The notes under the pieces are model-generated. The model saw only the letters and a list, made by a program, of their open reading frames with translations. It did no database searches and was not told the DNA's origin. The translations under genes were made by a program, and so were the position numbers. A stretch of DNA of 10,201 nt, taken from a virus. Location: UHGV virus genome UHGV-1546769, one strand, 5' to 3'. Of the stretch, positions 2,764-5,659 are shown in pieces. The first letter of the stretch is position 1; each line of letters opens with the position of its first letter.

Positions 2764-3756
2764 TCACCCCCTGAATCCTGCCGGGATCTGGCTGTAGTCC
2801 ACGTTGTCGTAACTGGCTTTGAAGTACGGGTCTTCACGTTTTTCTGTGTGCGTGCTGACGGACGGCGATAAGCGCAGGGAAAGCTCATCCCATTTTTCCC
2901 GCAACTTCGACGGGCTGAGCACGTTACGGCACCAGAACGGATCGCGGCTGACGCGGCTGTACATCTCGCAGATTTGTTTGTGAGTACGACCATCCTGCAC
3001 ACACATCAGGCGAATTTCGTTTGCCCATGCTGTCCAGTTCGGTTCTTTGGGACGAACCACCTCGCCGTCACATTCGGCGGCCTGCTCGTACAGGGCGATG
3101 ATTTTTTTCCAGAGCCACTGTGCGCAGGTCAAATCATCCTGCGTTCCCCACTGGCGCTTTTTAGGGCTGAATACAACCGCATCAGGATGGCGAGTTAAAA
3201 ACTCCTGTTCAGCCGTTTGCGTGTCCGGTTGCGAAGCGTCCGGACGAGAAGAGGTTTTATTCTCTGTAGTAATCTCTGTTGTATTCTCTGTAAGATCATT
3301 GGGCCATTTTGACCCGATGACAGCGTGTCGTTTTGAACCAATGGATCGTGTCATTTTGCGCCCATCCATCAGGTCACTTTGACCCGATGGAGAGGTGCAT
3401 TTTGACCTGATGGATTCGTTCACTTTGACCTCTTCTAAAAGCTCACTTTCATAGTTGATCGTGTAGAAGTTGGTCATGTCACGCTTCGATTTATTGAGTT
3501 GCTCGCGACGCAAAACCCCAAGTGATTTCAGGCTTGCAAATGTGCGTTTCAGAGTGGACTCTGACCAGAACGGAAACTGCTCCAGCCACTGTTCTGTCGT
3601 GTTATAAACCCAGCGAATTCCGCCATGCTCAGTGCCTGAATTCGTTTCATTCAGCCAGTAATGAAGCTGCTGCAACACAATTGCCTCATTCAGACCAATA
3701 CGGCATGCAAGATCACGATTTATCACAATGGGCTGGGATGTCATTAACAGGCTCAT
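2764..3756 (-). CDS. Replication initiator protein, lambda O-like, with the origin embedded in the gene
   Basis: 330 aa. It sits where O sits in lambdoid phages (after cro and a cII-like gene). The N-terminal region looks like a winged-helix DNA-binding domain, the central Thr/Glu/Asn-rich linker coincides with the iteron array and AT-rich repeats, and a separate C-terminal domain follows, which mirrors lambda O architecture. ATG at 3756..3754 with GAGG 6 nt upstream. Confidence 0.8.
   Translation of the reverse strand: MSLLMTSQPIVINRDLACRIGLNEAIVLQQLHYWLNETNSGTEHGGIRWVYNTTEQWLEQFPFWSESTLKRTFASLKSLGVLRREQLNKSKRDMTNFYTINYESELLEEVKVNESIRSKCTSPSGQSDLMDGRKMTRSIGSKRHAVIGSKWPNDLTENTTEITTENKTSSRPDASQPDTQTAEQEFLTRHPDAVVFSPKKRQWGTQDDLTCAQWLWKKIIALYEQAAECDGEVVRPKEPNWTAWANEIRLMCVQDGRTHKQICEMYSRVSRDPFWCRNVLSPSKLREKWDELSLRLSPSVSTHTEKREDPYFKASYDNVDYSQIPAGFRG
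3255..3300. repeat. AT-rich segment with three ATYCTCTGT repeats next to the iterons (candidate DNA unwinding element)
   Basis: Copies at 3259-3268 (attctctgta), 3272-3280 (atctctgtt) and 3283-3292 (attctctgta) in a locally AT-rich stretch. In the direction of O transcription it lies immediately after the iterons, as the AT-rich region does in lambda ori. Confidence 0.4.
3304..3432. repeat. Replication origin iterons: six direct repeats, consensus about tCAyTTTGACCCGATGG, period about 23 bp
   Basis: Repeats read directly at 3304-3320 (ccattttgacccgatga), 3327-3344 (gtcgttttgaaccaatgg), 3350-3367 (gtcattttgcgcccatcc), 3373-3390 (gtcactttgacccgatgg), 3396-3413 (tgcattttgacctgatgg) and 3419-3432 (ttcactttgacctc). 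They lie inside the O-like coding sequence with regular spacing of about two helical turns. Confidence 0.7.
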
Positions 3757-3925
3757 GACCGACCTCTATTTCCCTGAATTTACGACGAAACTGTTCGAGC
3801 GGACTGAAGCATTCATGTTCATAGCCTTCACGGAGGTAGATAACCCGTTGTGTTTCCGGCTCCCAACGAATGACTCTGACGGGCACTCCGTAGTGATCTT
3901 TGAACCAGCGGTTAACTTGTCGCAA
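3713..3925 (-). CDS. Hypothetical protein in an alternative frame (TTG start), overlapping the ORF at 3766-4104 and the first 14 codons of the O-like gene
   Basis: 70 aa ([70 protein letters not shown]) with globular-looking composition. The start is TTG at 3925..3923, preceded by GAAGGAGA with a 7-nt spacer. It cannot be cleanly reconciled with the overlapping ORF. Confidence 0.3.
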
Positions 3926-4104
3926 AGGACTGTCTCCTTCTGCCGGTTGAAATCACCCACAGCCCACTCTGCAAAGCTGTGGGTTACAATTTCCCTGTCA
4001 CCTGGTACATTCACTGCATAGCAATACTCCACCTTCGCTTTTCCACCCGGTACAGGAAGCGCAATCAGTTGCGAGCGACGGTAGTGTGTTGTTAAACTGT
4101 TCAT
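3766..4104 (-). CDS. Hypothetical protein, translationally coupled to the CII-like gene
   Basis: 112 aa. The ATG at 4104..4102 overlaps the upstream TGA at 4103..4101 (ATGA), with GGAG about 10 nt upstream. The N-terminal half ([28 protein letters not shown]) looks protein-like; the C-terminal half is Ser/Thr/Asn-rich and overlaps the better-looking 70-aa frame. Stop TAG at 3768..3766 lies 10 nt before the O-like start. Confidence 0.45.
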
Positions 4105-4685
4105 GCGTTAGTTTCTCCACAACCAGAAGCAATCGACGCCACGACGCCCGGAGCTGCACACTCGCGGGCGTTACTCTTTTCCGGCGCACAAAAAACACGA
4201 AATAACAGTGTTAAATGCTCCTGCCACTTCGCCATTACTTGGTAGCTGTTCTCTTCGATTTGCTCACGCTCAGCCTGGTCAATAACTCCATCAGCAGTTG
4301 CCTTGCGTAAGTACTGGGAATGCTTGCCAATCCATTCTATTGACTCCATCAGCCGCTGATTAATGTCACCATTGTCAATGTCATCAATGACCACCAGCGG
4401 CACAAACACCCCATTACTACGACGGGCTATTGCATCTGTTACATGCCTGGTACCACTGGCATCCTGTAAAACCATGGCCCACTCAAGTGGAAAAATTTGA
4501 TCCCCACCGCTACGCAGTCTGTTATGCAATTGATCTTTTGCTGGGGTGATATCATCAGATTTATACAAACCAAGAATTTCTGCTGCTTCCTCATAGCCAT
4601 GAGGTAAATCAGCAATCGTTCTTCGTATTGCTGCCACCAGCCATGCTGGTTGTTTATCAACTTTCCATTCAGGTTCTTTACCCAC
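4101..4685 (-). CDS. CII-like regulatory protein (YdaT-like: CII-type N-terminal region with a C-terminal extension)
   Basis: 194 aa, second gene after cro. The segment [42 protein letters not shown] resembles the lambda CII HTH region (AEAVGVDKSQISRWKRDWIPKFSMLLAVLEWG). The start is GTG at 4685..4683 with GAGGA about 8 nt upstream. The last ~25 aa are low complexity. Confidence 0.55.
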
Positions 4686-4712
4686 GGTTAATTCCTCATT
4701 TCTGTGGTGTTT

Positions 4713-4910
4713 TTATGCCGCAGCACTGTTAGTCTTTTGATATAAAGACACGTCAACTTTCAGTTTCCCGTTAGTAATTTTTTCTAACTGGTACGCTCGG
4801 CCTTCAGGAATAATCTCAGGCCACTCTGAAACAGACGGATGCTTAATACCTAGGGCTTCGGCGGTTTTACAAACTCCGCCGAAATAATTAATCACGTCGG
4901 ATTTCCGCAT
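4713..4910 (-). CDS. Cro-like / YdaS-family HTH regulator
   Basis: 65 aa, divergent from cI across the operator region. The segment GGVCKTAEALGIKHPSVSEWPEIIPEGRAYQLEKITNGKLKV fits the YdaS/Cro-like small HTH pattern. ATG at 4910..4908 with GGGAGA about 6 nt upstream. Confidence 0.75.
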   Translation of the reverse strand: MRKSDVINYFGGVCKTAEALGIKHPSVSEWPEIIPEGRAYQLEKITNGKLKVDVSLYQKTNSAAA

Positions 4911-5005
4911 TTCTGTCTCCCGTTAAATTACGTTAAGCAGAAATGTAGGATATCCAACATGCAAATGTCAAGAATCCTACATGGGCATGTGGTAGGATTG
5001 CCTAC
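4911..5005. promoter_or_regulatory. Right operator/promoter region (oR, pR towards cro, pRM towards cI)
   Basis: An 18-bp palindrome ATGTAGGATATCCAACAT lies at 4943-4960 and a split inverted repeat ATCCTACAT-N4-ATGTGGTAGGAT at 4974-4998, with a further half-site overlapping the cI start. On the minus strand a TTGACA -35 (plus coordinates 4966-4971) and a TACATT -10 (4942-4947) with 18-bp spacing sit directly upstream of cro, and the operator overlaps the spacer and -10. Confidence 0.65.
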
Positions 5006-5659
5006 ATGATGAACATGAGTGATCGTATTCGCCAAAGGCGAAAAGAACTGAACCTGACACAACAAGCACTGGCTGATTTGACTGGTGTGAACCGTGTCAC
5101 GGTTACTGGATGGGAAAAGGACGACTACCAACCAAATGGAGCCAACCTTCAAGCCCTAGCCAACGCACTTAAATGCGATCCTCTGTGGCTTGTTAGCGGA
5201 AAAGGCTCGCCTGAACCAAAGATAAATCTAAAACCTGAAATATTCGCAGTTAAAAAAGTCCCCCTCATCTCGTGGGTTCAGGCGGGTTCATGGACAATGA
5301 CGGAGCCTGGTGTCAGGAAAGAAGATGCTGAAGAGTGGGTTTATACTACCGCCCTTGTATCAGAAATGGCATTTGCACTACGGGTCCGTGGTGATTCAAT
5401 GACCAATCCCCTCGGCTCACCATCGATACCAGAAGGTTCTATCGTTATCGTAGAGCCAGATATTATTGATACAGAGTGTATTAACGGAAAAATCGTTGTT
5501 GCCCATATCAATGGTGGGCAAGAAGCGACACTCAAAAAATTTGTTGAGGACTGGCCGAACAGGTATCTCGTCCCACTAAATCCTAACTATAAAACTATTG
5601 AATGCGGTGAGAACTGCAGAATAGTTGGTCTTGTCAAACAAGTAATAATGGATTTTTGA
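5006..5659 (+). CDS. Prophage CI-type repressor (N-terminal XRE-family HTH plus C-terminal S24 LexA-like autopeptidase domain)
   Basis: 217 aa. HTH region RRKELNLTQQALADLTGVNRVTVTGWE; candidate Ala-Gly autocleavage site in SWVQAGSW; S24 catalytic Ser motif VRGDSMTNP and Lys in ATLKKF. Three in-frame ATGs at 5006, 5009 and 5015 with only a weak AGGA upstream, as for leaderless or weakly initiated cI transcripts. Confidence 0.9.
   Translation: MMNMSDRIRQRRKELNLTQQALADLTGVNRVTVTGWEKDDYQPNGANLQALANALKCDPLWLVSGKGSPEPKINLKPEIFAVKKVPLISWVQAGSWTMTEPGVRKEDAEEWVYTTALVSEMAFALRVRGDSMTNPLGSPSIPEGSIVIVEPDIIDTECINGKIVVAHINGGQEATLKKFVEDWPNRYLVPLNPNYKTIECGENCRIVGLVKQVIMDF

Follow-up and report, generated by a model that had tools for sequence, protein, structure and literature searches.

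The window analysed here, a stretch of 10,201 nucleotides (nt) from the virus genome UHGV-1546769, contains a lambdoid prophage early region in which two genes, ymfM and a gene of the DUF4222 family, are read in different frames over the same 160 nt. Comparison of sequences across related loci makes it likely that the overlap is genuine and has been conserved in evolution, with the two genes translated separately from different frames; they belong to the early rightward (cro - ymfL - ymfM - O) operon of e14-like lambdoid prophages. The features of the overlap and of the two genes that flank it are listed below; SD-like stands for Shine-Dalgarno-like.

4101..4685, minus strand: ymfL-type CII-like regulator gene (NCBIfam NF041471 YmfL family, 181 bits; Pfam Phage_CP76)
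3766..4104, minus strand: ymfM (112 amino acids, ATG start; "frame Y"), homologue of K-12 e14 b1148; phrog_1170
3926..4104, minus strand: non-overlapped N-terminal module of ymfM, about 59 codons, with protein-like evolution
3933..3940, minus strand: SD-like motif GAAGGAGA, ahead of the DUF4222 TTG and within the ymfM coding sequence, read from the sequence
3766..3925, minus strand: dual-coding stretch of 160 nt, ymfM and DUF4222
3713..3925, minus strand: DUF4222 gene (70 amino acids, TTG start; "frame D"), predicted small beta-barrel
3754..3768, minus strand: junction TAG AGG TCG GTC ATG, with the ymfM stop at 3768-3766, the SD-like AGAGG and the O-like ATG at 3756-3754
2764..3756, minus strand: O-like replication initiator gene (phrog_391 'replication initiation O-like', E=1.3e-101)

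An earlier note, made from the sequence alone, had described two open reading frames (ORFs) of 112 and 70 amino acids that overlap by about 160 nt between a CII-like and an O-like gene, the shorter one lying in the -1 frame, starting with TTG behind a strong ribosome-binding site and reaching 44 nt into the O-like gene. This geometry is borne out in full. The shared segment is exactly 160 nt (3766-3925), the DUF4222 ORF starts 179 nt past the ymfM start (179 mod 3 = 2, hence the -1 frame), GAAGGAGA lies at 3940-3933, 7 nt ahead of the TTG, and the last 44 nt of DUF4222 are the first 44 nt of the O-like gene (3713-3756). The neighbours are placed by their matches to the YmfL family NF041471 and to phrog_391. 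On the upstream side, the ymfL TGA stop (4103-4101) overlaps the ymfM ATG (4104-4102) as ATGA. The dual-coding stretch holds YmfM codons 60-112 and the stop together with DUF4222 codons 1-53 and the initial base of codon 54. A YmfM codon here takes its first two bases from positions 2 and 3 of a DUF4222 codon and its third base from position 1 of the following one, and therefore every change at a DUF4222 wobble position alters the second position of a YmfM codon.

Identity and conservation of the two genes

A 701-nt query covering window positions 3600-4300 is 100% identical to Escherichia coli KGu016, in which the Prokaryotic Genome Annotation Pipeline (PGAP) annotates the same CII-like ymfL ORF. 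The window ymfM differs from the ymfM of the K-12 e14 element at 5 of 339 nt and 4 amino acids, with the first 91 residues identical, and phrog_1170 matches the 112-residue product over positions 1-112 (E=1.2e-69). The neighbourhood is also that of K-12 and KGu016, with a cI-like repressor, a cro-like gene, ymfL and an O-like gene (ymfK-ymfT-ymfL-ymfM-O). By homology and gene order, the 112-residue ORF is YmfM of the e14-type prophages, the gene that NC_000913.3 (MG1655) labels as b1148, 'cell division inhibitor YmfM'. Profiles of Pfam and NCBIfam gave no match for YmfM.

The 70-residue ORF, which the earlier note had likewise judged to be a real protein, matches Pfam PF13973 (DUF4222) with 66.5 bits (E=1.5e-18; cutoff 27 bits), residues 2-53 aligning with profile positions 3-52 of 53, which is near-full coverage. 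Its profile match clearly marks it as a DUF4222 protein. Among its 145 homologues many are exactly 70 amino acids long with 61-84% identity (Citrobacter, Klebsiella, Salmonella, Enterobacter and others). The pattern of conservation is protein-like, with 16 residues invariant among 27 homologues. One further protein search covered the best 120 matches, and distant members of the family were reached by tblastn on phage records and by scans of IMG/VR.

Public resources diverge on this locus. In GenBank phage records (SfII, mEp460, PhiR49) and in curated K-12, ymfM is annotated and DUF4222 is not. RefSeq/PGAP genomes, including K-12 derivatives and KGu016, carry only DUF4222 (e.g. WP_001250270.1 and WP_001250269.1) and leave about 175 bp after ymfL empty. 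The PHROGs collection contains both frames, as separate families of unknown function. A literature search found no paper that names ymfM together with DUF4222, and neither the DUF4222 family description nor the searchable literature mentions that, in the lineages examined, the usual location of the family is inside ymfM in another frame. No earlier description of the ymfM/DUF4222 pair was thus found, and the databases disagree on which of the two genes exists.

Structure prediction with AlphaFold2 treats the two products very differently. The DUF4222 model is confident, with a predicted local distance difference test (pLDDT) score of ~90 for residues 11-50, and its predicted fold is a Tudor/SH3-like small beta-barrel. 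The YmfM model has a mean pLDDT of 48.7; its N-terminal module is modelled at moderate confidence as three strands and a helix, and residues 64-112 score below 40, the tail being predicted to be disordered.

Conservation of the arrangement was followed in 31 genome loci (one per species), 160 IMG/VR loci, several annotated phages and assembly contigs, which de-duplicate to 172 unique loci, 138 of them with a ymfM-type ORF. The ymfM frame spans DUF4222 for 160-175 nt in all 138, which come from more than 10 genera. It is open across DUF4222 in 31/31 genome loci (Citrobacter, Enterobacter, Raoultella, Kosakonia, Pantoea, Mixta and others) and persists where the DUF4222 protein is just 40-47% identical to that of the window. 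DUF4222 starts at profile position 1 in the 138 loci, with ATG in 71, TTG in 42 and GTG in 25, and an SD-like motif is found at -17 to -4 of this start in 132 of them, despite the differing types of YmfM N-terminus around it. All of these N-terminal types open with a similar MNSL-type sequence, as judged by eye in the translations.

More distant phages carry the DUF4222 gene on its own. In Serratia phage BZS1 it follows a KilA-N gene as a separate gene and bears the annotation DUF4222; in a Providencia phage the preceding gene is a YmfM-N-like one of 69 residues, and in Yersinia phage YeP1 it is a YmfM-N-like gene of 53 residues. The earlier note had pointed to a single unbroken gene in relatives as the sign of a pseudogene or a sequencing error. 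A continuous ymfM-DUF4222 gene occurs in no lineage, apart from a few sporadic assembly variants. A different kind of continuation is seen in Salmonella phage ST64B (sb41; L123) and in the Stx-phage matches H83-H96, in which the ymfM-type frame continues through DUF4222 into a Rha/antirepressor-like gene with no stop. The ST64B run-on is annotated as one 385-residue ORF, and DUF4222 is unannotated in these phages.

Constraint in the shared stretch

Ratios of nonsynonymous to synonymous divergence (dN/dS) were calculated by the method of Nei and Gojobori (NG86), and are termed naive for the off-frame reading. Within the overlap, dN/dS is 0.06-0.07 in the DUF4222 frame and the naive value in the ymfM frame is 2.2-2.9. 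The 59 non-overlapped N-terminal codons of ymfM have a median of 0.14-0.27. These values agree with the impression in the earlier note that the first half of the 112-residue ORF is protein-like and the second half looks off-frame, the latter also being the part with pLDDT below 40. Polymorphism within the e14 type follows the same pattern: among 42 sequences, 13 of the 14 polymorphisms in the overlap alter YmfM and leave the DUF4222 protein unchanged, and upstream of the overlap 18 of 23 are synonymous in YmfM and 5 are nonsynonymous. The four overlap positions at which the window and K-12 differ behave alike, each difference being synonymous for DUF4222 and altering the YmfM tail.

A second layer of amino acid constraint on the overlap would slow its synonymous sites. 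Divergence at four-fold degenerate sites of DUF4222 in the overlap was compared with that in non-overlapped ymfM and in the upstream gene, binned by amino acid identity of the YmfM N-terminus. This comparison replaced an OLGenie-style dNN/dNS ratio because, in this frame relation, the NS and NN classes fall on positions 1 and 2 of the DUF4222 codons, whose constraint differs anyway.

N-terminal identity 0.95 or more: overlap 0.069, non-overlapped ymfM 0.064
N-terminal identity 0.85-0.95: overlap 0.30, non-overlapped ymfM 0.15
N-terminal identity 0.70-0.85: overlap 0.56, non-overlapped ymfM 0.37
N-terminal identity 0.55-0.70: overlap 0.60, non-overlapped ymfM 0.47

No slowing of synonymous sites, the mark of amino acid constraint in a second frame, was found in the overlap, where four-fold divergence equals or exceeds that of non-overlapped ymfM and of the upstream gene; the conservation at synonymous sites that the earlier note had proposed to look for is absent. 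By these comparisons DUF4222 is the constrained frame in the overlap, and the amino acid sequence of the YmfM tail is without detectable constraint and behaves as an off-frame reading. Since the four-fold sites are not slowed and the polymorphisms are mostly synonymous in DUF4222 and nonsynonymous in YmfM, the constraint on the ymfM tail concerns the openness of its frame only.

Frame openness can be examined directly, as a ymfM-frame stop can arise solely where a DUF4222 codon NTA or NTG has A or G as the first base after it. In a null model, synonymous codons of DUF4222 were resampled from the usage of 245 flanking ORFs. On such recoding the probability that the ymfM frame is open is 0.046 (range 1-13%), with 2.2 stops expected per sequence; in the third frame, which serves as a control, 3.6 stops were observed against 3.3 expected. 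In 137 unique ymfM-linked sequences, 0 ymfM-frame stops were observed against 305 expected. Loci with no ymfM upstream carry stops at about the expected rate, with 3.17 per sequence against 2.83 in the Serratia type and 1.67 against 1.54 in the L153 type.

The avoidance of stops is visible at individual codons of DUF4222.

V/L4, risk (next codon A-): GTT, CTC or CTT; never GTG, CTG or TTR; one GTA allele
V18, risk: GTC or GTT only
V28, risk: GTT or GTC only
V14, non-risk: GTG 24, GTC 19, GTA 3, GTT 3

On a neighbour-joining tree, which is approximate and built from ~170 nt, the strict risk codons 4, 18 and 28 underwent 21 third-position changes, none of them to a purine. Of the 159 changes at non-risk four-fold codons, 86 are exchanges between a purine and a pyrimidine, which gives 0.46^21 = 8e-8 for the risk codons. 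Neighbouring codons also covary: V16 is GTR solely when codon 17 starts with C (Fisher p=0.006), I19 is ATA solely before C, and L31 is CTG solely before C and CTC when R32 is AGR. The signature is that of selection on frame openness, with no detectable selection on the encoded residues.

The single GTA allele is a natural nonsense mutation. A GTT to GTA change at V4, silent in DUF4222, shortens YmfM to 63 amino acids (L044/L206, IMGVR_UViG_2563366891_000011). A single IMG/VR contig carries it, whereas the wild-type 30-mer is present in at least 120, and the 112-residue ymfM ORF is intact in 114/114 of the latter that were readable. PHROGs includes a family of 63-residue proteins, phrog_20047; truncated forms of YmfM exist in some deposited phages.

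The junction with the O-like gene and rival explanations

The ymfM stop offers a possible reason for an open frame. In the window, the ymfM TAG lies 9 nt before the O-like ATG, shares the O frame and falls within the SD-like AGAGG. In ~115 of the 138 loci the ymfM stop is found 3-9 nt in-frame before the O ATG, across several unrelated O-like genes that share the conserved start cATGAGc. In the loci with this spacing DUF4222 ends 11-92 nt inside O, and ribosomes translating DUF4222 would cross the O initiation site and not stop there. The stop that meets the O ATG, overlapping it as ATGA, is that of DUF4222 in the serial lineages that were checked (Serratia, Providencia, Yersinia) and in the L145 type. 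With either the ymfM or the DUF4222 stop at the O start, depending on the lineage, some ORF ends at this position in the arrangements examined.

These positions suggest translational coupling to O as the leading reason for the open tail frame. DUF4222 is probably the older gene of the two and is the one constrained in sequence, starting inside ymfM from a start codon and an SD-like motif of its own. The N-terminal module of ~59 residues evolves like a real protein and occurs in several interchangeable types, and the YmfM tail of ~53 residues probably arose by overprinting, as the +1-frame reading of DUF4222. Selection keeps this frame clear of stops, and ribosomes started at ymfM would read on to a TAG that lies 9 nt upstream of the O-like ATG, on the SD-like purine run. 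Their delivery to the O start would form the last step of a termination-reinitiation chain from ymfL to ymfM to O, and a premature stop in the tail would uncouple translation of the replication gene from the upstream operon. Both products would presumably be made. The main alternative to coupling, equally compatible with the data, is a sequence-independent role of the disordered Ser/Thr/Ala-rich tail in YmfM.

The remaining features of the early region are as follows.

5006-5659, plus strand: LexA-like cI repressor gene, lambdoid prophage early region
4942..4971, minus strand: PR-like promoter match, upstream of the cro-like gene; 10/12 consensus match
4713-4910, minus strand: P22-Cro-like gene, early region

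The PR-like match is the one promoter-like site in 3500-5100 (10/12; a consensus match only, and as such weak evidence of function), and a single cro-ymfL-ymfM/DUF4222-O transcript is presumed to start from it. The scan, itself weak evidence, found nothing promoter-like between ymfL and DUF4222 that could serve as an internal promoter for the latter.

Several observations weigh against this reading of the locus. In loci of the L145/L117 type the DUF4222 stop already lies on the O ATG and the ymfM frame is still open, and thus O-coupling alone does not explain everything. The conserved NTA at DUF4222 codon 53, which forms the ymfM stop, could be kept by the SD-like run of O (TA[GA]AGG) instead of by the stop itself. 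Several lineages without an in-frame ymfM (Providencia type, L136-140, L141/142/172, Yersinia YeP1, L203) likewise have no stop in the D+1 frame. In the stop-free loci that lack an in-frame ymfM (L121, L124, L136-L142, L163, L172, L193, L203), 1.2-2.5 stops per sequence are expected, and the joint chance of such lineages is ~1e-4 if they are independent. The simplest explanation is that these open frames may reflect inertia after mosaic recombination; alternatively, a further constraint may be at work. The counts of unique sequences behind the 138 loci and the 305 expected stops overstate independence, the sequences being related, and the event-based test shares the approximate nature of its tree. 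The ribosome-profiling literature that was searched yielded no mention of ymfM. Three of the Providencia-type loci (L124, L163, L193) have a further peculiarity, an ATG ORF of 55 residues wholly inside DUF4222, in the D+1 frame that ymfM uses elsewhere. Its N-terminus is hydrophobic and membrane-helix-like (MKMLIISIAFIWISGVFAFASYVM...), and the YmfM-N-like gene of these loci lies in the third frame and ends at the DUF4222 start.

The earlier note had left three options for the overlap: a frameshift mutation that splits one ancestral gene, a genuine nested gene, and programmed frameshifting. The second is the one supported, both frames being conserved together in 138 unique loci with DUF4222 carrying its own start; the stand-alone DUF4222 genes of Serratia, Providencia and Yersinia speak against the first, and the lack of a conserved heptamer against the third. 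A pseudogene produced by mutation or sequencing error is scarcely credible here. Two half-genes in adjacent frames are its classical signature, and the same window does contain a real case, a 13-nt deletion in a Dam methylase gene; however, the identical arrangement recurs in KGu016 (100% over 701 nt), K-12, SfII, mEp460 and PhiR49, a total of 138 unique loci, from over 10 genera, share it, and distant relatives have no unbroken version, DUF4222 being separate there with its own start. Programmed -1 frameshifting would join the YmfM N-terminal module to DUF4222 in a fusion of ~118 amino acids, beside or replacing the separate products. It draws on the -1 position of DUF4222 relative to ymfM, on a D frame that is open for 27 nt upstream of the TTG in the window type (0-117 nt across loci), and on proteins of 102-119 residues with the fused architecture in a few Logan/ENA assemblies (P0015, P0016, P0151, P0106). 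The earlier note had seen no canonical slippery heptamer in the overlap, and this extends to the comparison: none is present in the window type, none is conserved across the 138 loci, and X XXY YYZ is absent from the fusion-yielding interval in 117 of them. No homopolymer run is conserved in this interval either. A start codon of its own is present for DUF4222 at every locus, nearly always behind an SD-like motif, and the gene stands alone behind unrelated genes such as the KilA-N gene of BZS1. Most of the fused forms stem from read-level assemblies, and their junctions differ. Sporadic indels would produce this picture, and the forms are probably such indels or assembly errors. Frameshifting is accordingly very improbable.

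A better-founded rival, though still an improbable one, holds that DUF4222 is the sole real gene in the overlap, that the upstream product is the YmfM module of ~59 residues, and that the 53-codon extension is a functionless historical run-on. The off-frame character of the tail, with its naive dN/dS of 2.2-2.9, unslowed DUF4222 four-fold sites and predicted disorder, is what this reading expects. PGAP makes no ymfM call, stand-alone N-terminal modules of 53-69 residues exist in Yersinia, Providencia and L141-type phages, the 63-residue truncated form is common enough to have its own PHROG family (phrog_20047), and the D+1 frame is open in some lineages without an in-frame ymfM. In contrast, a functionless extension leaves 0 stops against 305 expected unaccounted for, together with risk codons whose third positions change frequently and never to stop-creating purines, and with neighbouring codons that covary. 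Lineages truly without ymfM carry stops at the neutral rate, and inertia alone is hard to square with frames that stay open at 40-47% DUF4222 identity and with a difference of ~60% at four-fold sites. A non-coding RNA was also considered and rejected: the whole window has no Rfam match, and the four-fold sites vary freely.

Further observations concern the flanking sequence. A GTG-started ORF of 66 residues in the third frame (3998-4198, minus strand) runs across the ymfL/ymfM junction, and its off-frame peptide also heads some mis-called database proteins (P0075, P0207). It is taken to be a by-product of the conserved junction sequence and not a gene. The O-like gene contains direct repeats at 3297-3436, five to six iteron-like copies of ~23 nt (core CATTTTGACC), and at 3258-3293 three repeats of 12 nt; this looks like a lambda-style origin embedded in the initiator gene. 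Near ~2073, close to its 3' end, the window Dam methylase gene lacks 13 nt that are present in E. coli KGu016. The ORFs concerned are 1764-2669 and 1706-2263, both on the minus strand. The methylase ORF encodes 301 instead of 217 amino acids, and its last ~100 residues are an off-frame reading of the next gene, a LexA-family gene of 108 residues. Judged from the alignment with KGu016, this deletion is a real strain-specific frameshift, in contrast with the ymfM/DUF4222 overlap.

Known systems and the SfiC phenotype

Out-of-frame overlapping gene pairs are well known in phages, with Rz/Rz1 of lambda and the overlapping genes of phiX174 as familiar cases, and overprinted younger frames are typically compositionally odd, predicted to be disordered and weakly constrained. 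The ymfM/DUF4222 pair resembles these systems in obtaining two proteins from one DNA stretch in different frames and in having a younger frame with those properties. It differs from them in being a staggered three-way arrangement (ymfM over DUF4222 over O) and not a full nesting, and in having a tail that shows stop constraint only and ends at the ribosome-binding site of the next gene. Termination-reinitiation coupling in polycistronic operons is likewise familiar, with ATGA and TAANNNATG junctions. The ATGA of ymfL/ymfM, the ymfM stop 9 nt before the O ATG and the DUF4222/O ATGA of the serial lineages are all of this kind; in contrast to the usual junctions, coupling at the present locus would need a passenger frame of 53 codons over another gene. 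Both the type of feature and the proposed mechanism thus have precedents.

YmfM has been reported to be SfiC, the SOS-associated cell division inhibitor of the e14 cryptic prophage (bioRxiv 10.1101/2020.11.19.390815). In that work, Ansari et al. expressed the ymfM ORF from pBAD24, observed Z-ring loss and filamentation, and equated the gene with sfiC (bioRxiv 10.1101/2020.11.19.390815). The K-12 gene (b1148) is the same gene as that of the window, with the same neighbours. The literature treats ymfM as a simple stand-alone ORF, whereas in the present comparison the last 53 codons prove to be a conserved DUF4222 gene read in the +1 frame; for PF13973, conversely, the window ORF is a full-length member, and in the lineages examined the family is usually located inside ymfM in another frame. 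Within the K-12 ymfM ORF (1203822-1204160) lie 53 of the 59 DUF4222 codons, about the whole Pfam domain, along with the TTG and the SD-like motif ahead of it. Consequently, the pBAD24-ymfM insert, the library clones of earlier screens and ymfM deletions carry or remove most of DUF4222 as well, and the phenotype is not assignable among full-length YmfM, its N-terminal module and a slightly truncated DUF4222.

A contribution of DUF4222, whole or partial, to the Z-ring block and the division-inhibition phenotype is conceivable, though it is rather the less likely outcome. The same low expectation applies to a broader proposal with two separate parts: the 53-codon YmfM tail would be a 'passenger' frame kept open just to carry ribosomes over DUF4222 to the O start, and, independently, the SfiC phenotype would come entirely or partly from DUF4222. 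If true, the tail would be an ORF extension that is selected for being translated and not for the residues it encodes.

The label 'cell division inhibitor' in K-12 rests on over-expression and deletion of an ORF that contains a second, better-conserved gene omitted by the curated annotation. Studies of SfiC, of prophage-induced filamentation and of pangenomes and annotation all face the same two-gene locus, in which point mutations silent in one frame can assign the phenotype. The pair provides a clean natural case for separating selection on stop codons from selection on amino acids, which bears on the origin of overprinted genes and on how phage early operons keep the translation of their replication genes coupled.

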